A DNA stretch of 64,000 nucleotides from Candidatus Multivorans sp. (lineage in GTDB: Bacteria > Acidobacteriota > Thermoanaerobaculia > Multivoradales > Multivoraceae). A program made the translations under genes and the position numbers. Position 1 is the stretch's first letter. Each line of letters begins with the position of its first letter. Location of the stretch: NCBI GenBank assembly GCA_965224025.1, contig OZ245033.1:320001-384000 (forward strand), written 5' to 3'. Shown piece after piece: positions 33,087 through 45,331 of this stretch. Under the pieces are notes generated by a model that saw nothing but the letters and a program-made list of their open reading frames with translations, was not told the DNA's origin and did not search any database.

Positions 33087-35795
33087 CTAGCGTCGCGGCG
33101 CGCCGGATGCGGGCAGGATGCCCGCGTTCCCAGGGTCGGAGGCACGGGTCGCGCCGGTCGGGTTCCCAGGATCGGAGTCACGGGTCGCTCCGCGCTGCAT
33201 GCTCCTGGCGCTCTCGCCGGTGTCGCGGCGGCCGACCCAGAAGGGGCTCGACCAGGCCTGGCCGCCGTCGAGCTGGGTCGCGCGCAGATAGTAGTAGTCG
33301 CCGGACGCCGGCTCCTCGAGGTCCACGAACTCGAACTCACGGTCCAGCGCGGCGCCGGCGTCGATCACCTGCAGACGGACGCGGTCGAGGTGGCGGCCGA
33401 CCGGCAACACCCGCTCGATGCGGCTCTCCTGGAGCTCGTCGAGTCCGAAGGCCACCACGGCGGCTGGGATGTCCACCGGCCGCCGCACCAGCGGCGGAGC
33501 GAAGCCATTCTCCCGCGCCGCGTCGAGGTGCAGGGTAACTCGCGTCGAGCTGCTGGCGCCGGCGAGGCGAAGCAACAGCGTGTTCATCCGGCCGCGGGTC
33601 TCGGTGTAGAAGCGCACCCGCTGCGGCTGGTCCGGATCGACCTCGGCCCACTCGAGGTAGGGGTTCTTGAAGCCAGGGGACTCGATGCCGAGAAGCCGCG
33701 CCCCCGTGACCTCGAGCACACCCGTCCACACCCTGTAGACGCGCGGATTGTCGCGGTCGGGGGCGAACACCTCCGAAGACGACTCGAAGCCGATCTGCAG
33801 CCACGCGCTCGATTCCAGCGGCGCCGACAGGTAGCCGCGGCTGCGCAGGACGCGTCCGTTCTTGATCAGGTCGATGCGGTCGATCGGCGACGTGCCGGAG
33901 ACGCGGCAGAAGAACGCCCGCCGCTCCGCGTGTGGCTGCCGCGTTCCCATCGGCTCGCCATTCAGGGTGGCGGAGAGCAGGATTCGCTGGCCCGAGGTCG
34001 CGTAGGCGCGCCGTGCACGCAACGCGTCGAAGACCGCGTCCGTCGTCTTCTCCGGCGCCACAGCCGCCGCCAGGCCGGGGCCCTGAACGTGAGGCGAAAA
34101 GAAGAGCCCCGGGTTGTAGCCGGGCTTGGCGCGGTGATCGTCCGAGGCCGAGATGAAGCCGATCTCGAAGCCGTTCTGCAGGTAGCGGTTGCCGAACCAC
34201 TCGAAGGTCCCATGCTGTGACGTGATCTCCACCAGCGTCTCGAGATCGCCCGCGCTCTGGTTCCAGTCGCCGGCCTGATGGGCGTGAGGAATGACCAGAA
34301 CCGCAGACGGATCGTTCTCGGCCCGCAGACGTTCGTACATCTCGGCCAGGGTCGGCGCCTCCTGGTTCGGCACCCGGGGACGGTCGCGGGAGCGGAAGAA
34401 GACGTTGTGGTGACCGCCCAGATCCCGCCTGGCGCTCCATTCGTAACCGAGGATGGCCAGGAACTCTCTCTCTTCGGTGAAGTCGCGGCTGAGTTCCTGG
34501 AGATGGCTCCACTCCAGGTCGTCCATCGACGAGTCGTGATCGGTCAGGGCGACGAAGTCGAGCCGCGCGTCGTCGCGCGCATAGCGATAGAACTGCTCGC
34601 CGCCGCCCTGGCCCTCGGCGAAGCCAGCGTGTCCGTGCAGCTCGCCCCAGTAGATCCGCTCTGCCGGCGCCGCCTCGACCCAGACCGGGTTGCTCTCGGC
34701 CTCGAGCCGGCCGTCCGCGGAACGCACGACGAACCGAGCGACTCCCGAATCGCTCACCGTCACCCCCTCGACCCGGGCAGCCGACTCCGAACCCGCCGGC
34801 ACCGTGGCGACCGTTTCGCCGTCGAGCAAAACGATGTACTCCTGGCCGGTGACGCCGCGCGAGCGGTTGAAGTAGCGGTCCTCGCTGCGCACGACCAGAC
34901 CGATCTCCTCGCCCGCCGCGACCACCGACGGGGCGAAGACCGCCAGGGACTCCACCTCGTCCAGGCTGACGACTTCGTGGTGCGGCCAATTCGGCGTGAA
35001 GTAGACACCGGCGCCTTCAAGATCGACGTAGACGGGCAGCACCAGGGCTTCAGTGGTCAGCGTCTGCAGCCTGAGTCCGCCCGACCCCTGCGACCGGTCG
35101 CCATAGGTGAAGGTGACGGTGTCGCCCTGCTCGAGATTGCCTTCGGCGAGCCGGAACACCACCATCGGCTCCTCGTCCTGGAAGCCGCCGTGCTTCCCCG
35201 ACAGCGGAGTGCGGTCCTTCTCCCAGCGCGCATCGGGGTTCGAGGAACGAAGCGATACGTAGTTGTCAGCGGCCGGATCCTCGTGTTGCATCGACTCCTG
35301 GTCCGACATGATCTGGGCGCCGAGCAGGAAGGAACCGCCGGTCGCCATGCTCATCGAACCGACGGTGTACGTCTGTTCGATTTCGGCCCGCTCGCCGGCG
35401 ATCAGCAACCCGCCGGTCCTGGCCGTCACGTCGCCGATGGCGTCCGGGCGCTCGTCCCGAATCGCCAGTTCACCGATCTTGTCGTCGAGAGTTCCGAGGA
35501 TCCGTTCGGAGATGCCGCGGCCAAGTTCATGCTGGCTGACGACCCGCATGACCGTCGTCGTGCTGTCCATGGGCAGCGTTCGACCCGTGACCGCATAGGC
35601 GTTCAGCCACTCCCAGAACACGCCGGCGCGCTCGGTCGCGTTGTCCTGAGTCGACGGCCCCGCCTCGACCTCCTGCTTGAGCGTCTCCACGCGGGACCGC
35701 AGGTCCGCCTCGAGGTAATCGTCACCGGGCGCCGGCGCACAGCCGACAACAACGGCGAGCGCGGGCAGGGCCCTCCTGAGTGGAACGCTCAACAC
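33087..35795 (-). CDS. DUF3604/PHP-like metallohydrolase lipoprotein, paralog B
   Basis: VVGC lipobox; WGELHGHA, TDHD, GYEW, GGHHNV, IPHAH, SDDH. GTG start at 35795 inferred from AAGGAG. The C-terminal tail reads through repeat DNA. Confidence 0.8.
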   Translation of the reverse strand: MLSVPLRRALPALAVVVGCAPAPGDDYLEADLRSRVETLKQEVEAGPSTQDNATERAGVFWEWLNAYAVTGRTLPMDSTTTVMRVVSQHELGRGISERILGTLDDKIGELAIRDERPDAIGDVTARTGGLLIAGERAEIEQTYTVGSMSMATGGSFLLGAQIMSDQESMQHEDPAADNYVSLRSSNPDARWEKDRTPLSGKHGGFQDEEPMVVFRLAEGNLEQGDTVTFTYGDRSQGSGGLRLQTLTTEALVLPVYVDLEGAGVYFTPNWPHHEVVSLDEVESLAVFAPSVVAAGEEIGLVVRSEDRYFNRSRGVTGQEYIVLLDGETVATVPAGSESAARVEGVTVSDSGVARFVVRSADGRLEAESNPVWVEAAPAERIYWGELHGHAGFAEGQGGGEQFYRYARDDARLDFVALTDHDSSMDDLEWSHLQELSRDFTEEREFLAILGYEWSARRDLGGHHNVFFRSRDRPRVPNQEAPTLAEMYERLRAENDPSAVLVIPHAHQAGDWNQSAGDLETLVEITSQHGTFEWFGNRYLQNGFEIGFISASDDHRAKPGYNPGLFFSPHVQGPGLAAAVAPEKTTDAVFDALRARRAYATSGQRILLSATLNGEPMGTRQPHAERRAFFCRVSGTSPIDRIDLIKNGRVLRSRGYLSAPLESSAWLQIGFESSSEVFAPDRDNPRVYRVWTGVLEVTGARLLGIESPGFKNPYLEWAEVDPDQPQRVRFYTETRGRMNTLLLRLAGASSSTRVTLHLDAARENGFAPPLVRRPVDIPAAVVAFGLDELQESRIERVLPVGRHLDRVRLQVIDAGAALDREFEFVDLEEPASGDYYYLRATQLDGGQAWSSPFWVGRRDTGESARSMQRGATRDSDPGNPTGATRASDPGNAGILPASGAPRR
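33097..33188 (+). repeat. REP-like hairpin plus a 27-bp direct repeat with 36-bp period
   Basis: GCGCCGGATGCGGGCAGGATGCCCGCGTTCCCAG; 33126-33152 and 33162-33188 match at 25/27 positions. Confidence 0.75.
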
Positions 35796-35929
35796 TCGAA
35801 TCCGACGCTCCTTCGAGCCTGAATGGCCGCAATCAAGGTAGCACGGCCGGCCGACCACGCCCGCGACGGCCCCGGTCCGGGCCGGTAGTATGTGCCGTTC
35901 CAACACGAAACAGGACAACCGGAGGGGCC

Positions 35930-36778
35930 ATGGGACTGCTGGACGGCAAGGTGGCCATCGTTACCGGCGCGGGCAACGGCCTGGGCAGATCGCACGCCCT
36001 GCTCCTCGCCGCCGAGGGCGCACGGGTACTGGTCAACGACCCGGGCTGTGCGCGGGACGGTTCTGGCGAAAGCGACGTTGCGGACGAGGTCGTCGACCTG
36101 ATCCGCGCCGAAGGCGGAGATGCCGCCGCAAGCAAGGTCGCGGTCGGACCGTTCGAAGCCGCCGCGGAGCTCGTCCAGCAGGCGGTGGACACCTTCGGCG
36201 GAGTCGACGTCCTGGTCAACAACGCCGGCATCCTGCGCGATCGCACGGCCCTCAAGATGAGTGAAAAGGAGTGGGACTCCGTTCTCACCGTGCATCTGAG
36301 CGGCACCTTCTCCTGCCTGCAGGCCGCCGCCCGCGTGATGCGCGAGCAGGGCCGGGGTGGCCGGATCATCAACACCACGTCCGTTGCCGGCATGCAGGGC
36401 AACTTCGGCCAGAGCAACTACTCCGCCGCCAAGGCCGGCATCTACGCGGTGACGCGCACCGCCGCCATGGAACTCCAGCGCTACAAGATCACCGTCAACA
36501 CGATCTCGCCCACCGCCTACACGCGGATGACCGCGGACAATCCCGGCGTCACCGAGAGCTTCGGGGACCGCTATGGACCCCAACACGCCTCGCCCCTGGT
36601 CGTGTTTCTGGCCTCGGACCACGCCGCTCACATCACCGGTCAGACGCTGGGAGTCGAAGGCACGCACATCTTCGCCTACCGCATGATGAGCACCGTGGGC
36701 GTCAAGCAGTACGTGGGCGACGACCCCTGGAAGCCGGCCGCGATCCGGCACGTGATCGACCAGGTGATCGGCCACTGA
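35930..36778 (+). CDS. SDR oxidoreductase (MFE-2 hydroxyacyl-CoA dehydrogenase-like)
   Basis: TGAGNGLG, LVND, NNAGILRD, GNFGQSNYSAAKAG. ATG at 35930 after GGAGG. Confidence 0.92.
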   Translation: MGLLDGKVAIVTGAGNGLGRSHALLLAAEGARVLVNDPGCARDGSGESDVADEVVDLIRAEGGDAAASKVAVGPFEAAAELVQQAVDTFGGVDVLVNNAGILRDRTALKMSEKEWDSVLTVHLSGTFSCLQAAARVMREQGRGGRIINTTSVAGMQGNFGQSNYSAAKAGIYAVTRTAAMELQRYKITVNTISPTAYTRMTADNPGVTESFGDRYGPQHASPLVVFLASDHAAHITGQTLGVEGTHIFAYRMMSTVGVKQYVGDDPWKPAAIRHVIDQVIGH

Positions 36779-39393
36779 TGCCGCTCCCCAGCCGTGCCGC
36801 GGCCGGAGTGGTCGCGTCGCTGGCGGTGCTGTGGATCGGCTGCGGCCTCGGGTCCGAGTCGGTCCCGCGCGACAGGGATCTGCGCCACCGGGTCGAGAAG
36901 CTGATCGCGGACGTCGAGCGGAAGCCCACCTCGGCGGCCACCGTCTTTCGCCGGACCGACACGCTGTGGGACTGGGGCAACCGCTTCGCCATGGACGGCG
37001 GCGTTCTGCCGGCCGACCTGCCTCTGGCGGTGGCTCTGATTCGCTTCGCCGAGGCGGACGGCGGTGAAGTCGACCTGCCGCCGGCCATCGACCTGTACCT
37101 CGAGACGCACCTGGAGCGCTTCGACCAGTACGTGCGCGAACTCGCGTTGAAGGAGTCCGAGCCCCACGCTGTCGGCGAGCTGCGCATGTCGACGCCCGGC
37201 CCCCTGATCGCCGGCGCCACGGCCACCGTCGAGCAGACATACATCGTCGGGTCCCGCGGTCTCGCACCGGGCGGTGGATTCCTGGTCGGCAAGTCGGGAA
37301 CCGGCAACGAGACGCGACCCCAGAACCTGAATCCGGCCGGGGACAACTTCGTGTCGCTGCGCAGTTCCAACCCGGCGGCGACCTTCGAGCCCCTCCAGGT
37401 CGAATGGAACGGGGTCCATTCGCACGTCCCGGGCAAGCGACCGCTGCCCGGTTTTCGGCTTGAAGGAGCCGCGCTCGAGTCTGGCGAAACGGTCACGTTC
37501 ATCTACGGCGGCGAATCGAGCCGTCTCACGGTGCCGGCATTCAGCAACGACGAGTTGGTGCTTCCGGTCTACGTGGACATCGACGGCAGCGGGACCTACC
37601 TGACTCCCGCGCTGCCCGGAATCGAGGTCGTCGGCGAGCCGGAAGTCCACGCGGTTCGGCTCCTGGCGCCCTCGGTCGTTGCCGCGGGCGAGCCCTTCGA
37701 GATCACGGTGCGCAGCGAGGACCGGGCGATCAACCGGTCCAGCGGCGCGATTCCCGCCTACGAGGTCCTCCTGGAAGGCGACGCGATCGCCAGGATCGAG
37801 GCCGCGCACGGCGCCCTGTCGGTGGTGCAGGGACTGACGATCGAGACGCCCGGCGTCCATCGCCTCGAGGTGCGCTCAGTCGACGGCAACCTGAATGCCA
37901 CCAGCAACCCGATCCGCGTCGAGCTCGAGCCGGAGGTACGCATCTACTGGGGCGACACGCACGGCCACACCGGACTGGCCGAGGGCACCGGCTCGGCGCG
38001 GGCCTTCTTCGAGTACGCCAGCCGGGACGCCCGCCTCGACTTCGCCACGCTCTCGGAGCACGACATCTGGATGGACGACGGTGAGTGGCTCGACCTCCAG
38101 GAGTTGACCCGCGACTTCAGCGAAGACGGCCGCTTTGTCGGCATCCCGGGCTATGAATGGACGGCGTTCCGCAACCGCGGCGGGCACCACAACGTCTTCT
38201 TTCGGGATCCAGGAAGCCGTCGAGTTCCGGTTCAGGAAGCGACGCGGCTGCCCGATCTCTACCGGCAACTGCACGCCATCTACGAGCCCGACGAGGTCCT
38301 CGTCATTCCGCACGCCCACCGCGCCGCCGACTGGACTCGGAGCGATCCCGAACTGGAGAAGCTGGTCGAGCTGTACTCCGTTCACGGCAGTTTCGAGTGG
38401 TTCGCCAACCGTTACCTGCAGAGCGGCTTCGAACTCGGCTTCGTCGCCGCCTCGGATGACCACCACGCCAAGCCGGGACTCGCGCCGGGCCCCGTCTCGA
38501 GCGTTTCCCAGCCCGGCGGCCTGGCCGCTGTCCTGGCGCCGGAGCTCAGCCGAGACGCCCTCTTCTCGGCGCTGCGCAATCTCTCGTCCTACGCCACCTC
38601 GGGACAGCGCATGCTCCTCGAAGCGACCGTCAACGGAGCCGGAATGGGCACTCGGCAGGAGAGCGCGGAGCGGCGTGAGATCCGGGTCAACGTGAGCGGC
38701 ACGGCCCCGATCGACAGCATCGACGTGGTGCGCAACGGCGAGATCATTCTCAGCAGACGGTACGTGGCCGCACCGCTTGGCGCGCGCAGTTGGCTGCAGG
38801 TGTCCTTCGAGTCATCCTCCCAGGTATTCGGCCAGCAAGTCGACAACCCACGCGGCTACAGGCTCTGGGAGGGAACCCTCGAGGTGCGGGGAGCCCGGGT
38901 CCCGCAGGTGGTTCCGGCCGGCCTCGACAACCCCCTTCGCGACCAGGTCTCACGGCTCGATCCGGGCGCCGGTCACGGCGCCAGGTTCCGCATCCTGACT
39001 CGGGGCCGCGCCGACTCCTTCCTGGTCGAACTCGATGGCGCGGGCCCCCATACGCTGCTGAGTTTCCATCTGAACGAGAGCGCCGAGTCCGGTTTCGCGC
39101 CGGGAATCCGGCCCGCCGCCCGGATTCCCGCCGCCGACTTCGCCATCCGGCTGGGCGAACTCGAAGCTGGCCGCCTCGACCATGAGCTGCCGGTCGGGCC
39201 CCATCCGGATCGCCTGAGTCTGCAGGTGATCGATCCCGCCGCCGCCCTCGATCGGGAGTTCCAGTTCGTCGACCTCGACGGCGTCCGAGACGGCGACTAC
39301 TACTATGTCCGCGTGACCCAACTCGACGGCGGCCGTGCCTGGTCGAGCCCGTTCTGGGTCGGAAGTCGACCCGCCGGCAACGGAGGACAGTAA
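36778..39393 (+). CDS. DUF3604/PHP-like metallohydrolase lipoprotein, paralog C
   Basis: TGATG coupling to the SDR; WIGC lipobox-like; WGDTHGHT, SEHD, GYEW, GGHHNV, IPHAH, SDDH, WSSPFWV. Confidence 0.8.
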   Translation: MPLPSRAAAGVVASLAVLWIGCGLGSESVPRDRDLRHRVEKLIADVERKPTSAATVFRRTDTLWDWGNRFAMDGGVLPADLPLAVALIRFAEADGGEVDLPPAIDLYLETHLERFDQYVRELALKESEPHAVGELRMSTPGPLIAGATATVEQTYIVGSRGLAPGGGFLVGKSGTGNETRPQNLNPAGDNFVSLRSSNPAATFEPLQVEWNGVHSHVPGKRPLPGFRLEGAALESGETVTFIYGGESSRLTVPAFSNDELVLPVYVDIDGSGTYLTPALPGIEVVGEPEVHAVRLLAPSVVAAGEPFEITVRSEDRAINRSSGAIPAYEVLLEGDAIARIEAAHGALSVVQGLTIETPGVHRLEVRSVDGNLNATSNPIRVELEPEVRIYWGDTHGHTGLAEGTGSARAFFEYASRDARLDFATLSEHDIWMDDGEWLDLQELTRDFSEDGRFVGIPGYEWTAFRNRGGHHNVFFRDPGSRRVPVQEATRLPDLYRQLHAIYEPDEVLVIPHAHRAADWTRSDPELEKLVELYSVHGSFEWFANRYLQSGFELGFVAASDDHHAKPGLAPGPVSSVSQPGGLAAVLAPELSRDALFSALRNLSSYATSGQRMLLEATVNGAGMGTRQESAERREIRVNVSGTAPIDSIDVVRNGEIILSRRYVAAPLGARSWLQVSFESSSQVFGQQVDNPRGYRLWEGTLEVRGARVPQVVPAGLDNPLRDQVSRLDPGAGHGARFRILTRGRADSFLVELDGAGPHTLLSFHLNESAESGFAPGIRPAARIPAADFAIRLGELEAGRLDHELPVGPHPDRLSLQVIDPAAALDREFQFVDLDGVRDGDYYYVRVTQLDGGRAWSSPFWVGSRPAGNGGQ

Positions 39394-40819: not shown

Positions 40820-42001
40820 ATGCCTAGTCATGGAATCAAGGATCGGGTCGCCATCATTGGCATGGGATGCACCTCCTTCGGAGAGCATTGGGATCAGAGC
40901 ATCGGCGATCTTTCGCTGACAGCGTCGCAGGAAGCGGTCCGCTCGGCGGGGCTCGATCTCGCCGAGATCGACGCCTTCTGGCTCGGCAACGCCGGCACGC
41001 TCGCCTCCGGACTGCTCATCGCCGAGCCGCTCAAGATCCGCTACAAGCCTGTCACCCACGTCGAGAACTTCTGCGCCACCGGCAGCGAAGCGCTGCGCAA
41101 CGCCGCCTACGCGGTCGCCAGCGGCGCCTACGACATCGTCATGGCCCTCGGCGTCGAGAAGCTGAAGGACTCGGGTTACTCAGGACTGTTCGACCTGAAT
41201 CCGACGACCGACGGCACGGAACTCGAGATGACGCCGCCGGCGGCGTTCTCCATGATCGTGCCCGCCTACGCGGAGAAGTACGGCGTCGGCGAAGACACGC
41301 TGAAGGACGTGATGTCCCGAATCGCGCACAAGAATCACGCCAACGGGGCCAAGAACCCCAAGGCCCAGTTCCAGCGTGAGGTGCCGCTGGAGCGGATCAA
41401 ATCCGCTCCCCCCATCGCCGGCAAGCTCGGACTCTTCGACTGCTCGGGAGTGAGCGACGGCGCCGCTGCCGCGATCCTGTGCAGAGCGGAGGACGCCCAC
41501 CGCTACTGCGACGATCCGGTCATCCTCAAGGGAGTCGGATTCGTCGTCGGGCCGGCGGAAGGGGTCAAGAAACCGGACTACGACTTCACCACCTTCCCCG
41601 AAGTCGTGGCGAGCGCCGAGGACGCCTACCGGCAGGCCGGCATCACGGACCCGCGCGAAGAGATCAGCGTAGCGGAGGTGCATGACTGCTTTACACCGAC
41701 CGAGCTGGTGCTGATGGAGGATCTTGGATTCTCCGAACGCGGAAAGGCCTGGCAGGACTGCCTGGACGGCCGCTTCCAGCTCGACGGCCGCCAGCCGGTC
41801 AACCCCGACGGCGGCCTCAAGAGCTTCGGCCATCCCATCGGCGCCAGCGGTCTGCGCATGATGTACGAGATCTGGCTGCAGCTACGCGGTGAGGCAGGTG
41901 TGCGCCAGATCGCCGATGCCCGGATTGGACTGACCCACAACCTCGGCGGCCTCCCCGGCAACTGCGTGAGCTGCGTCTCCGTGGTCGGAAAGGCGGCGTG
42001 A
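40820..42001 (+). CDS. Thiolase family protein (SCP-x/PhlC-like acetyl-CoA acetyltransferase)
   Basis: VENFCATGS, SDGAAA, EVHDCF, NPDGGL, GHPIGASG, HNLGG. Confidence 0.92.
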   Translation: MPSHGIKDRVAIIGMGCTSFGEHWDQSIGDLSLTASQEAVRSAGLDLAEIDAFWLGNAGTLASGLLIAEPLKIRYKPVTHVENFCATGSEALRNAAYAVASGAYDIVMALGVEKLKDSGYSGLFDLNPTTDGTELEMTPPAAFSMIVPAYAEKYGVGEDTLKDVMSRIAHKNHANGAKNPKAQFQREVPLERIKSAPPIAGKLGLFDCSGVSDGAAAAILCRAEDAHRYCDDPVILKGVGFVVGPAEGVKKPDYDFTTFPEVVASAEDAYRQAGITDPREEISVAEVHDCFTPTELVLMEDLGFSERGKAWQDCLDGRFQLDGRQPVNPDGGLKSFGHPIGASGLRMMYEIWLQLRGEAGVRQIADARIGLTHNLGGLPGNCVSCVSVVGKAA

Positions 42002-42034
42002 AGCGATCGGCGTCCACTGTGCTGGAGCCTGCAC

Positions 42035-42043
42035 TGCTATAGT
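42035..42043 (+). promoter_or_regulatory. Candidate extended -10 promoter for the selenoprotein gene
   Basis: TGcTATAGT 30 nt upstream of the ATG, followed by a GAGGAGG RBS. Confidence 0.4.
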
Positions 42044-42073
42044 GGATTCACGATATCTTGAGGAGGATCCGTC

Positions 42074-42757
42074 ATGAACCGCTGGATCAAGATCGCCGCT
42101 TGCGGTGTCGTCGTCGCCGGTGTCCTGGGATGGGGCGGTTTCAAGACCTACCGCTTCCTGCTGGAGAGCGGGCTCATCCGGTTCAACGAGTACGACATTC
42201 GGACCGAGGGCATCCTTCAGGTCGGCGAGCCTGCTCCGGACCTGCCGTTGACTCTGGTCGGCGGCGGCGACGCGCGTCTCTCGGACCTGTGGGCCACCAA
42301 GCCTCTGGTCCTGGTCTTCGGCAGCTACACGTGACCGCCCTTCCGAGCCCGTGTGGCTCGGCTCGAGGAGATGAGGGAAGAGTGGAGTCCGGCCATCGAA
42401 TTCAGCTACGTCTACATCAAGGAGGCCCACCCGGAGGACGAGTGGCAGGCGCCCAGGAACGAAGCGACGAACCTGATCTTCAATCAGCCAAAGACGATGG
42501 TTGACCGCATGGATCTCGCCAGAGAGTTCGTCGAAGCGATGGATGTCAAGACACGGACCCTGGTGGACGACATCGCCAACACGGCCAACGCCTGCTATGC
42601 CGGCTGGCCCGAGCGCATCTACGTGATCGACAAGGGCGGCACGATCGCCTACAAGGGCGGCATGGGGCCCTTCAACTTCGATACGGACGAGCTCGAGGAG
42701 TTCCTCGCGGACAACTACGTCGGGCTGCGCACCGCGAGCGAAGCCACAGCCGGCTAG
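42074..42757 (+). CDS. Iodothyronine deiodinase-like selenoprotein (thioredoxin fold; TGA 42332-42334 read as Sec)
   Basis: The two track ORFs share one frame and join as PLVLVFGSYT-U-PPF…YIKEAHPEDEW…YAGWPERIYVI…YKGGMGPF, matching deiodinase motifs. N-terminal hydrophobic anchor. 227 aa. Confidence 0.9.
42332..42361 (+). promoter_or_regulatory. Sec codon with candidate bacterial SECIS hairpin
   Basis: TGA, 8 nt, CCGAGCC-CGTGT-GGCTCGG: perfect 7-bp stem with GU in the loop. Confidence 0.7.
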
Positions 42758-42873
42758 CCATAGAGGCGTTTCGCGCGCTAGGAGTGTCCGCAGCGTTGTC
42801 GCTGCGCTGTCGCGCAGGGAACAGGCAGCGAGTAGCCAACGTTACAGCGGCGTCGTGGGTTCGTAGAGTTGGC

Positions 42874-43029
42874 CGCGCTGGGCAGCGAGGCCGCGCAGGC
42901 ACTGGTGTGTTGGCGCCCGACTAGGAGTTTGGCCCGGACCGTGATCGGCGCTCTGACGCTGGCGGCGCGGCTTGTGTCGCGACCCCGTATGCAAGATTGA
43001 GCTTTTCGCCGCGGTCTCTGCCCAGCGCG
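42874..43029 (+). ncRNA. Putative bridge RNA in the IS110 left end (bounds approximate)
   Basis: 12-bp perfect closing stem (42874-42885/43018-43029) with nested stems. CTAGGAG (42921-42927) equals the target left flank; ATGCAAG (42989-42995) equals the IS right end. Confidence 0.65.
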
Positions 43030-43062
43030 ACGATTGGATTCCACATCTACGGGAGGCAGGGG

Positions 43063-44382
43063 ATGGCAAAGCGGAAGGCGGAGCGTCTGGAAGTCGTTCA
43101 CCCGGATTGCGCCGGTGTGGACGTAGGCAAGCGCAAGCACTACGTGGCGGTGGCCCCGTCGCGTTTCGAGCGGCCGGTGCGCAATTTCTCGTCGTTCACG
43201 GAGGACCTCGAGGCGATGGCCTCGTGGCTTCAGGAGTGCGGCGTGCGTGAGGTGGCGCTGGAGTCGACGGGGGTGTACTGGATTCCGGTGTTCGAGGTGC
43301 TGGACCGGGCGGGGTTCGAGGTGCATCTGGTGAATCCTCGGGCGACCAAGCAGGTGAGTGGCCGCAAGAGTGACGTTCTGGACTGCCAGTGGATCCGGCA
43401 GTTGATGAGCTACGGGCTCCTGCGCGGTGCGTTTCGCGCGCCGGACGAGTTGTGTCCGCTGCGTTCGTACACGCGGCAGCGCGCCCAGTTGGTCCGCGAC
43501 CGCAGCCGCGCGGTGCAGCACATCCAGAAGGCTCTGGTGCAGATGAACGTGCAGTTGGACAACGTGCTGAGCGACATCATGGGCAAGACCGGCCAGTTGA
43601 TCGTGCGCGCGATCGTCGCCGGCGAGCGCGACGGCGCGGCGCTGGCCCGTCACCGGGACGGTCGCTGCAAGGCTGGTCCGGCTGTGATCGCGGCGAGTTT
43701 GCAAGGCAACTGGCGAGACGAGCACCTGTTCGCTCTGGGCCAGGCGCTGGCCCGCTACGACATGCTGCAAGGCCAGATCGAGATGTGCGAGAAGCGCATC
43801 GACGCCGAGCTCGACGGCCTGGCCCAAGACGGCGTCGAGGACGCGCCGCCGCCCGGTTCGAAGGCGCGCGAGCGCGCCCTGCGGAAGCGGCTGCATCGCA
43901 TGCTCGGCGTGGACCTGGTCGCCATTCCGACGGTCGGCGTCGAAACCGCGCTGACCTTCGCCGCTGAGATCGGCCCGGACCTGTCCCGGTTTCCCTCGCA
44001 GGGCAACTTCTGCTCGTGGCTGTGTCTGGCTCCACCGACCAACATCAGCGGCGACAAACGGCTGAACGGCCCTCCCGTGAAGCAGACCAACCGGGTCGGC
44101 CAGACGCTGCGCCAAGCCGCCACCACAGCCCGCAACAGCAAGACCGCCATCGGAGCCTCTCACCGCCGGCGTCTCCAGCACATGGAGAAGGCGAAGGCCA
44201 TCAAGGCCACCGCTCATCAACTCGGCCGACTGATCTACGCCATGCTGACCCACGGCGAAGAGTACGTCGAGCGCGACCTCGCCGAAATGGAGGCCGTCCG
44301 ACGCGAACGACAAATCAGAAACCTGCAGCGTCAGGCCCGCCGCCTGAATCTGGCTCTCGTGCCGACCGAACATGCCGCCTGA
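43063..44382 (+). CDS. IS110 family DEDD recombinase/transposase
   Basis: GVDVGK, LESTGVYW, RKSDVLD (D-E-D-D); Tnp domain with IPTVG…EIG…F…LAPPTNISG. ATG after GGGAGG. Confidence 0.95.
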   Translation: MAKRKAERLEVVHPDCAGVDVGKRKHYVAVAPSRFERPVRNFSSFTEDLEAMASWLQECGVREVALESTGVYWIPVFEVLDRAGFEVHLVNPRATKQVSGRKSDVLDCQWIRQLMSYGLLRGAFRAPDELCPLRSYTRQRAQLVRDRSRAVQHIQKALVQMNVQLDNVLSDIMGKTGQLIVRAIVAGERDGAALARHRDGRCKAGPAVIAASLQGNWRDEHLFALGQALARYDMLQGQIEMCEKRIDAELDGLAQDGVEDAPPPGSKARERALRKRLHRMLGVDLVAIPTVGVETALTFAAEIGPDLSRFPSQGNFCSWLCLAPPTNISGDKRLNGPPVKQTNRVGQTLRQAATTARNSKTAIGASHRRRLQHMEKAKAIKATAHQLGRLIYAMLTHGEEYVERDLAEMEAVRRERQIRNLQRQARRLNLALVPTEHAA

Positions 44383-44436
44383 ATCGCGCAACCTGCGCTG
44401 CCAACAAGGAACCCCTACCCGTTTGTTCCATGCAAG

Positions 44437-44528
44437 CCTGCGCGGCAAAACGATCTGACTTGGGAACGCGGGCGTCTCGCCCGCATCCGGCGCCAAGCGC
44501 CGGCCTCCCGGGAGTTCTGTCGCCCTAG
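44437..44528 (+). repeat. REP-like composite repeat, right part of the IS110 target
   Basis: CTGCGCGGCA…TGGGAACGCGGGCGTCTCGCCCGCATCCGGCGCCAAGCGCCGG…GTTCTGTCGCCCTAG aligns with the reverse complement of 5868-5950. Confidence 0.8.
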
Positions 44529-45331
44529 CCGGATTGGCCGGCCGGGTTGTTGACCCGATAGGTCAGGCGCGCCGCCGCGCGCCGCGTCAGGATGCGCATC
44601 AGGAAGATGACGGCGCGGTTGCGCCAGCCCGGTACGACCGAGGGGGCGCGACCGAGCCCTCGCAGGCTGGCGTCCACCACCTGCTCGGGGCTCGTCCAAC
44701 CGGTCATCGGCTCGGGCGCCCCCATGCCGGCCTTCTTCTGGTACTCGGTCGGCGTGAATCCCGGCGACAGCACGATGACGTCGATTCCGTGCTCCGAGAG
44801 CTCCGCCCAGAGCGCTTCGCCGAACATCAGGTTGAACGCCTTCGACGCGCCGTAGACGGCCTCGAACGCCACCGGCTGGTAGGCCGCCGTGCTCGACAGG
44901 AAGATCAGCGCGCCGCGACCGCGCTCGACGAGCCGCGGAGCGAGAATCGTCGCCAGCCCGACGGCCGCCCGGTTGTTGACCTCGACGATCTGAAGTTGAA
45001 GCTCGGGATCCTGCTCGACAAAGGGCCCGTAGGTGCCGAAGCCGGCGTTCGACACCAGCATGCCGACCTCGATCCCGAGATCGTCGACGGCCTTGAAGAC
45101 GAGCCGCGGGCCGTCGCGCTCCCCAAGGTCCTGGGGAACGACATGGACCGTCACACCCGAGGCCGAGCGCAATTCCCGCGCCAACTTCTCGAGCCGGTCG
45201 GTGCGCCGTGCGACAAGCACCAGTTCCATGCCCTCATCGGCAAGCCGCCGCGCGTAGGCCTCCCCGATACCGCTGGAGGCGCCCGTAATCAGGGCGGCGC
45301 CGCCGTAGCGTTGCGGGATTCGCGGGCTCAT
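44525..45331 (-). CDS. SDR family oxidoreductase
   Basis: TGASSGIG, LVARR, NAGFG, YGASKA. Confidence 0.92.
   Translation of the reverse strand: MSPRIPQRYGGAALITGASSGIGEAYARRLADEGMELVLVARRTDRLEKLARELRSASGVTVHVVPQDLGERDGPRLVFKAVDDLGIEVGMLVSNAGFGTYGPFVEQDPELQLQIVEVNNRAAVGLATILAPRLVERGRGALIFLSSTAAYQPVAFEAVYGASKAFNLMFGEALWAELSEHGIDVIVLSPGFTPTEYQKKAGMGAPEPMTGWTSPEQVVDASLRGLGRAPSVVPGWRNRAVIFLMRILTRRAAARLTYRVNNPAGQSG

Follow-up and report, generated by a model that had tools for sequence, protein, structure and literature searches.

Bacterial relatives of the animal iodothyronine deiodinases (Dio1-3) were reported from the Sargasso Sea by Zhang, Fomenko and Gladyshev in 2005, as four selenocysteine (Sec) sequences and six cysteine (Cys) homologues with bacterial selenocysteine insertion sequence (SECIS) elements (PMC1088965, accessible text). 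According to the accessible part of a 2026 review, the deiodinase-like family is still among the prokaryotic selenoproteins known only from bioinformatics (PMC13188914). A first-pass annotation of 64,000 nucleotides from Candidatus Multivorans sp. (contig OZ245033.1, positions 320,001 to 384,000; this whole stretch is referred to as the window, and positions are counted from its first letter) proposed that a membrane-anchored deiodinase-like selenoprotein is hidden at 42074-42757, and it was correct in saying that such bacterial proteins had already been reported without an established substrate (PMC1088965, as far as its accessible text goes). From the sequence, we read 42074-42757 on the forward strand as a single deiodinase-family gene in which an in-frame TGA is recoded as Sec, with a probability of about 0.92, a figure that excludes the substrate. 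That the window gene is a mis-annotated addition to a selenoprotein family published since 2005 is well supported.

The window gene and its relatives share with the 2005 bacterial proteins homology to PF00837, the pairing of an in-frame UGA with Cys in homologues, a bacterial-type SECIS downstream, the lack of a known substrate and identification by bioinformatics. The 2005 set is marine, whereas the window clade comes from Acidobacteriota-type genomes and some from Planctomycetota; moreover, the window clade has a conserved N-terminal anchor, a difference drawn against the accessible text of the 2005 paper, whose figures and supplements may already show anchored forms. The active-site motif also bears comparison, as the window clade and the animal enzymes read U-P-P-F with no Cys at +3, whereas the table in the 2026 review gives UxxC (PMC13188914, accessible text). 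Some marine-type Cys forms carry C-x-x-x-C. The literature surveyed, which consisted mostly of titles and the opening lines of abstracts outside subscription journals and supplements, contained neither an assay of a bacterial member nor a report of the family from Acidobacteriota.

The gene is predicted to be laid out as follows:

42074..42757, forward strand: complete coding region for the deiodinase-like selenoprotein (227 codons, the 87th for Sec, followed by TAG)
42060..42066, forward strand: Shine-Dalgarno-like GAGGAGG, 7 nt 5' of the ATG, as read from the sequence
42332..42334, forward strand: UGA read as selenocysteine (U87), on the basis of conservation, Cys pairing, alignment with Dio proteins and short-read contigs

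An open reading frame (ORF) that begins with ATG at 42074 (42074-42334, 86 aa) stops at the TGA at 42332-42334, after which the frame is open until the TAG at 42755-42757. Read through, it translates as ...LVLVFGSYT-U-PPFRARVARL..., with YIKEAHPEDEW, PERIYVIDKGGTIAYKGGMGP and WPERIYVIDKGGTIAYKGGMGP further downstream. GAGGAGG is the sole ribosome-binding site of its kind for the 227-codon frame, and an internal in-frame GTG at 42353 is preceded by no comparable purine run. The first-pass annotation had described two same-frame ORFs split by one TGA at the Sec position of animal deiodinases, the second of them without an evident ribosome-binding site; both descriptions are borne out, with exact coordinates. 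A consensus scan of 41800-43000 for sigma-70-type promoters and terminators gave no match, and an Rfam scan of 42000-42800 gave no family at E up to 10.

The codon homologous to this TGA was followed through two sets of related loci. Species-representative genomes were searched with query peptides that lacked the active site (the genome_contigs search, 80 loci), and JGI metagenome contigs were searched with an alignment of Cys-form proteins, from which the best 80 loci were taken. The codon was TGA in 80/80 genome_contigs loci, where it lies between FGS[YFC]T and PPFR, and in 80/80 of the best metagenome loci (78 with the strict motif and two with a relaxed one). TGA therefore occupies the Sec site in 160/160 related loci, with TAA, TAG, TGC and TGT in none, and even the Cys-form query yielded Sec forms only among the best metagenome loci. 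A separate search for relatives gave 20 loci, with TGA and the strict motif in 12; another, L034, has FGSYT-U-PVF. Seven weak matches from that search (L035-L041) lack the motif, do not belong to the family and were excluded from all counts.

Among the 120 nearest database entries, Cys stands at the site in all seven full-length proteins, and the Cys form was found in at least 40 of 150 top cluster representatives. Sec/Cys pairs, for which the first-pass annotation had suggested searching homologue alignments, are therefore present (TGA in 160/160 loci against Cys in 7/7 full-length homologues). The other 113 of the 120 entries are C-terminal fragments of 124-167 aa covering the post-TGA part only, as expected where gene callers halt at a Sec TGA. 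The family is thus systematically shortened, and its true size and anchored architecture go unseen. When 1.84 billion cluster representatives were searched with a profile, 564 clusters matched at E up to 1e-30 and 4087 at E up to 1e-10, indicating that the family is large. Residues encoded upstream of the TGA are conserved as well: L48, G51, P55, P77, G83 and T86 are invariant in 35 aligned sequences, indicating that both halves evolve as a single protein. In alignment the TGA falls on the active-site Cys of mouse Dio3 (4tr3, FGSCT-C-PPF) and mouse Dio2 (9h48, FGSAT-C-PPF), which replaces Sec in both structures according to their entry titles.

One Cys form in the database set, the protein P0041 (FGGFT-C-PPFRRSVERL), keeps the same anchor and is nested among Sec forms. 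All 80 of its closest metagenome relatives carry Sec; P0041 probably reflects a rare conversion of Sec to Cys.

Immediately downstream of the TGA, a structured element is predicted:

42343..42361, forward strand: upper SECIS stem-loop, CCGAGCC-CGUGU-GGCUCGG, 7 bp, starting 8 nt past the TGA
42339..42368, forward strand: possible extended SECIS, in which a predicted lower stem, pairing 42339-42342 with 42365-42368, and then a 3-nt bulge precede the upper stem-loop

The constraints on bacterial SECIS elements given in the accessible text of the 2026 review are a loop of 3-9 nt, an upper stem of 4-16 bp, a minimum free energy of -7.5 kcal/mol or lower, a G at loop position 1 or 2 that is often followed by G or U, and a spacing of 16-37 nt from the UGA to the apical loop (PMC13188914). 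The window hairpin has a 5-nt loop (C-G-U-G-U; G-G-U-C in the main clade), a 7-bp stem and an energy of -12.0 kcal/mol, all within these limits, and none of 200 shuffles of the 19-nt hairpin was as stable. The 40-nt fold that includes the predicted lower stem reaches -16.5 kcal/mol (z -1.51), with 16 of 200 shuffles as stable. The 7-bp hairpin 8 nt past the TGA, as first annotated, is thus found at 42343-42361, and it is accompanied by covariation in relatives.

Several observations weigh against reading this hairpin as a SECIS. The spacing is borderline, at 15 nt from UGA to loop (18 when counted from the U) against 16-37, so that the counting convention matters; in relatives it is 17 nt in the main clade and 20 nt in Vicinamibacteria-type sequences. 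A 75-nt fold has a z of +0.61, 23% of codon-usage-weighted synonymous resamples are equally stable, and the post-UGA segment ranks 15th of the 214 segments compared in the gene. When a strict hairpin is defined as at least 6 contiguous pairs with a 3-7 nt loop containing G and a start 8-15 nt past the UGA, it arises in 28% of the window gene's own synonymous resamples. Folding energy is therefore unremarkable in this G+C-rich gene, and the case for a SECIS rests on position, conservation and covariation.

Across 77 unique post-UGA segments the hairpin recurs near the same place, built from differing sequences that encode differing peptides: RARVAR in the window gene's clade, RRSVER in the largest clade, RKKIGD in the Vicinamibacteria-type sequences, and RREVGY and RRQVGD in metagenomes. 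The strict hairpin occurs in 59 of 73 unique family segments, where 13.7% would be expected from synonymous resampling and 7.0% from elsewhere in the same genes, and in 57 of 76 metagenome segments. For covariation, the alignments were grouped by hairpin register after inspection, which favours structure, and relatedness can inflate the shuffle control; five sequences in other registers were left out (L050, L091, L060, L065 and L083). Read with these two cautions, the window gene's clade (16 sequences) has 88.4% of cells paired, compared with 15-52% when the partners are slid, and 12 double-change cells where shuffles predict 3.4. In the large clade (56 sequences) 87.3% are paired, compared with 30-68%, and a single pair joining two Arg third-codon positions (15:30) is G:C in 39 sequences, C:G in 5, A:U in 2, U:A in 1, G:U in 2 and unpaired in 6. 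One contig of a relative, from a metatranscriptome library, bridges the TGA and differs at both partners of a single base pair (42346 A>G and 42358 T>C); this contig is the whole of the RNA support, and the library may contain DNA. Two of the sequences in other registers (L050:3247-3306 and L091:3196-3255; RKKVVN/RRKVVD) have a predicted 12-bp stem that includes the UGA itself; this stem may represent an alternative SECIS design or have arisen by chance.

The host genome (5.14 Mb in 3 contigs) carries the Sec machinery that the first-pass annotation had supposed: selB (308 bits), selA (434 bits) and selD (257 bits), each over its curated cut-off, and a tRNA-Sec (74.8 bits) to which ARAGORN assigns the anticodon tca (UCA). 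The selD match (G000:C1:4861514-4862434, L010) sits in an 800-aa open frame without an internal stop, which could reflect a fusion protein or a frame extended too far in G+C-rich DNA. Across the genus, selA is present in 41/41 genomes and the deiodinase-like gene in 9/41, with one TGA each; the gene is an accessory selenoprotein and the Sec machinery is core.

The genome was also screened for in-frame TGA codons with coding-type GC3 on both sides and a hairpin, a crude screen beyond which more cases may exist. It returned 13 candidates, the window gene included, and in four of the others one Pfam domain spans the TGA, making them probable selenoproteins:

G000:C1:3795199, forward strand: probable selenoprotein gene L238
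G000:C1:591909, reverse strand: probable selenoprotein gene L239
G000:C1:4441618, forward strand: probable selenoprotein gene L240
G000:C1:931313, forward strand: probable selenoprotein gene L241

Two of the four encode AhpC/TSA proteins that have W-U-PYC and a signal-peptide-like N-terminus; the others encode a CMD/AhpD-like protein, with CFY-U, and a member of the UGSC family (PF24696). Domains spanning a TGA in four further genes indicate that the Sec machinery is in use. A Sec-type formate dehydrogenase (TIGR01553) was not found in the genome, where the best match reached 62 bits and had no internal stops.

Could the TGA nevertheless be a true stop, leaving two small genes or a pseudogene derived from a Cys-type gene? 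Gene callers treat it in this way, as the C-terminal piece stands alone in 113/120 of the nearest entries, and there is a GTG in frame at 42353. However, a stop or a decaying gene predicts a mix of TGA, TAA and TAG along with frameshifts, and instead TGA is found in 160/160 loci with the frame and the active-site residues intact. A split would also cut one thioredoxin fold through its active site and leave the second piece without a ribosome-binding site. We therefore regard a true stop as very improbable. Plain read-through of the UGA, by a suppressor tRNA or through a code reassigned to Trp, Gly or Cys, has in its favour that the sequence cannot separate it from Sec insertion. Against it, the thiolase gene 72 nt upstream terminates with TGA at 41999-42001, which indicates that UGA is not reassigned in this host; a dedicated tRNA-Sec, selA, selB and selD are present, the codon aligns with the Sec of animals and the Cys of homologues, and a conserved hairpin stands at SECIS distance. 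We give read-through as little credence as a true stop.

Slightest of all is the chance that the codon is really TGC or TGT and became TGA through an error in sequencing or assembly. The genome is apparently a metagenome assembly, in which single-base errors occur, and nothing else speaks for an error. By contrast, a short-read contig from run X1 (depth 48.7) spans 42316-42579 with 0 differences, four runs (from at most three samples) show no variant at 42332-42334, and the same codon stands in 160 independent relatives. TGC or TGT at this codon, which the first-pass annotation had named as evidence against Sec if seen in reads, does not occur in the short-read contigs, which keep TGA. Runs X1 and X2 may be the genome's own source sample, and their contigs leave 42172-42307 uncovered, a gap that carries no meaning; the small word shares of runs X3-X23 permit no statement on habitat. 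An X3 contig joining 42339 to 42605 (31-nt side, likeness threshold 88) was taken to be another organism or a chimera and set aside.

With the UGA read as Sec, the product falls squarely within the deiodinase family. Residues 47-212 match positions 72-234 of the 237-position PF00837 profile, across the TGA, at 115.9 bits (cut-off 27, E 2.3e-33), and among solved structures mouse Dio3 (E 4.5e-25) and mouse Dio2 (E 4.1e-23) are nearest in sequence. An AlphaFold2 model was built from the 35-sequence alignment with Cys in place of Sec (pLDDT 91.9). The best Foldseek matches to this model were Dio2 (9h48; E 1.4e-14, TM-score 0.83) and Dio3 (4tr3; E 1.5e-13, TM-score 0.78, both scores being target-relative), followed by anchored thiol-disulfide oxidoreductases of the ResA/TlpA type, Etrx2 and 1-Cys peroxiredoxins (E 1e-9 to 1e-7). 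The proposed family membership is thus upheld by a PF00837 match above threshold and by Dio2 and Dio3 as best structural matches; as modelled, the product shows a thioredoxin-fold domain of the iodothyronine-deiodinase family behind an N-terminal hydrophobic segment.

With animal Dio1-3 the window protein shares a single N-terminal hydrophobic anchor, the thioredoxin fold, FGSxT-U-PPF, a Y..E.H....W loop and the ER of a WPER/FER motif, at 31-32% identity. The position of the SECIS differs, as it lies in the coding region right after the UGA, whereas the eukaryotic SECIS lies in the 3' untranslated region (PMC13188914, accessible text). The loop is encoded here:

42413..42445, forward strand: YIKEAHPEDEW, deiodinase-type loop carrying Tyr114, Glu117, His119 and Trp124, invariant in 35 sequences

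In the accessible text of PMC11592359, the proton-relay and loop-D residues of Dio2 are Ser127, Thr129, Tyr157, Glu160, His162 and Trp167. By alignment they map to S84, T86, Y114, E117, H119 and W124, of which T86 and the four loop residues do not vary among the 35 sequences, whereas S84 reaches at least 90% conservation.

Other thioredoxin-fold families fit less well. The match to PF00578 AhpC-TSA (28.9 bits, just above the cut-off of 26) covers the same residues as the far stronger PF00837 match, and peroxiredoxin is not the best-fitting family. Peroxiredoxins carry a spaced T..C motif; in the window protein Thr stands immediately before Sec. Compared with ResA, other proteins of the TlpA/CcmG type and 1-Cys peroxiredoxins, the window protein has in common the N-terminal anchor, the thioredoxin fold and weak AhpC-TSA and Redoxin matches, but differs in its 12-21% identity, the absence of CxxC, a single Sec right after Thr and a deiodinase-type insertion loop. 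A second Cys occurs at no fixed position in the family (C173 in the window gene's own clade, VCYPQP in the main clade, LPCLVD in other Cys forms). NF038285 deiodinase_rel, an NCBIfam model of longer Cys-type bacterial proteins, aligns through its C-terminal deiodinase domain, whereas the N-terminal half of the profile is absent; only positions 177-340 of 347 are covered, at 167.8 bits, below the cut-off of 250. The window protein also lacks the EF-hands that occur in pairs in 14 of 20 long Cys-form relatives.

The N-terminus bears a further conserved feature:

42086..42142, forward strand: hydrophobic segment at the N-terminus (residues 5-23, IKIAACGVVVAGVLGWGGF), conserved family-wide, either a membrane anchor or a signal that stays uncleaved

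Throughout the family a short positively charged head precedes about 19 hydrophobic residues. The best 19-residue window has a mean Kyte-Doolittle hydropathy of 1.76 in the window protein and 2.29 on average in 53 family members, and in the model residues 2-39 form one long helix. The membrane anchoring given in the first-pass annotation is therefore consistent with a hydrophobic N-terminal anchor that is present and conserved across the family. The catalytic domain probably faces the periplasm. This orientation is hinted at because some Cys forms start with signal-peptide-like sequences, because the domains fused in long Cys forms (EF-hand, CcmH-type TPR, CMD) point the same way, and because the next-best structural matches are anchored periplasmic oxidoreductases. 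Positive-inside counts favour neither orientation, with 2.4 K/R in 5.8 residues of the N-terminal flank and 2.9 K/R and 1.0 D/E in 15 residues of the C-terminal flank (53 sequences).

The long Cys forms were sampled as 20 hand-picked proteins out of 82 cluster representatives of more than 260 aa, and they contained EF-hand pairs in 14 cases, CcmH-type TPR in two and a CMD/AhpD-like domain in one. In P0135, P0139, P0142 and others, of 340-910 aa, the EF-hand pairs precede the deiodinase domain. One long form has a ceramidase-like N-terminus and another has two tandem deiodinase domains.

In standard bacterial Sec insertion, SelB with Sec-tRNA(Sec) is recruited by an mRNA hairpin. By this route, for which the components are present, translation of the window gene would start at the ATG at 42074, the hairpin at 42343-42361 would recruit SelB carrying Sec-tRNA(Sec) so that Sec is inserted at the UGA at 42332-42334, and translation would continue to the TAG at 42755. 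The selenolate of Sec87 might then attack an electrophilic atom of the substrate, with Thr86, Ser84, Tyr114, Glu117 and His119 assisting, and the resulting selenenyl intermediate (Se-X or Se-OH) would be resolved by thiols that recycle Sec87.

As to the substrate, we lean tentatively towards reductive dehalogenation of a non-thyronine halogenated phenolic. We do so because bacteria and animals share the deiodinase-specific motifs without variation, because Sec is kept in 160/160 loci, and because this is the only chemistry demonstrated in the deiodinase family. Two residues weigh against deiodinase-type substrate handling. His182 of Dio2 is described as the third histidine of the relay, and Arg275 of Dio3 or Lys241 of Dio2 as the clamp on the substrate carboxylate (PMC11592359, accessible text). 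The window protein has Pro139 in place of the former (Pro in at least 90% of the 35 sequences) and Met197 in place of the latter, at a position that varies (M, P, T, I, V, Q, K). Since these two residues, tied to thyronine handling in animals, are not conserved, iodothyronines, which the first-pass annotation had put forward for assay, are unlikely substrates; thyroid hormones are not expected in this host.

A peroxide or disulfide substrate is almost as probable. The enzyme would then be an extracytoplasmic peroxidase or thiol oxidoreductase, that is a selenoperoxidase or thiol-disulfide oxidoreductase of the peroxiredoxin or TlpA/ResA type. Such a redox role was proposed in 2005 (PMC1088965, accessible text). 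It agrees with the loss of the thyronine-site residues, with the AhpC-TSA match above cut-off and with the structural matches that follow Dio2 and Dio3, namely ResA and other anchored oxidoreductases, Etrx2 and 1-Cys peroxiredoxins; in addition, the fusions in long Cys forms include CMD/AhpD-like (1/20) and CcmH-type TPR (2/20) domains, and the genome has two exported Sec-containing AhpC/TSA proteins. On the other hand, T-U-P-P-F-R and E-A-H-P-x-D-x-W are deiodinase-specific and invariant from bacteria to animals, and neither is known to belong to the peroxiredoxin or TlpA signatures. Nor is there a second Cys at a fixed position, and the retention of Sec in 160/160 loci suggests a chemistry in which selenium is hard to replace. 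A substrate of some other kind is unlikely.

Also unlikely, in our estimate, is the wider proposal that the anchored Sec forms are extracytoplasmic aryl-halide reductases acting on natural halogenated phenolics, and so a third, selenium-based class of bacterial reductive dehalogenases, neither corrinoid nor flavin, that is widespread in Acidobacteriota and Planctomycetota. It is compatible with, and not demonstrated by, the unbroken retention of Sec, the invariant deiodinase-specific loop and the absent thyronine-clamp residues. If dehalogenation proves true, a selenium-dependent route would be added to organohalogen turnover in soils and sediments. Bacterial relatives of the thyroid deiodinases have been known for twenty years without a substrate, and the clade described here brings full-length sequences in number, a catalytic core whose residues are defined, an inventory of features that it does and does not have in common with the animal enzymes, and evidence that replacement of Sec is very rare.

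Upstream of the gene lie an SDR gene, genes for DUF3604 proteins and a ChsH2-like protein, and the thiolase gene; downstream stands an IS110 element, followed by an SDR gene. No conserved operon partner was found across 81 loci, where the commonest neighbour family, DUF2127, occurs in 10/81. A thiolase neighbour is present in 6/81 loci, all from the same genus, and the functional tie to the adjacent catabolic cluster that the first-pass annotation had suggested thus finds no support beyond the genus; with no family-wide neighbour, the link amounts to synteny confined to a single genus. In that genus, 8/41 genomes have the window-type copy of the thiolase (93-95% identity), all eight of them also carry the deiodinase-like gene, and a ninth genome has the deiodinase-like gene without this copy. 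The gene lies in an accessory region.

The thiolase at 40820-42001 is itself a second, accessory copy, with a paralogue (65-72% identity) elsewhere in 41/41 genus genomes. Further upstream, two very long ORFs, at 33087-35918 on the reverse strand and 36271-39393 on the forward strand, each have only a short DUF3604 match. On the downstream side, the insertion element begins about 21 nt past the selenoprotein stop:

42778-44445, ends approximate: IS110-family element, with a transposase ORF at 42997-44382

Fourteen copies of the element that are at least 98.7% identical are present in the genome, along with one more at 85%, and read depth rises about 14-fold at 42778. Related genomes of the genus have the SDR gene (44525-45331 in the window, reverse strand) directly downstream in place of the IS110 element.

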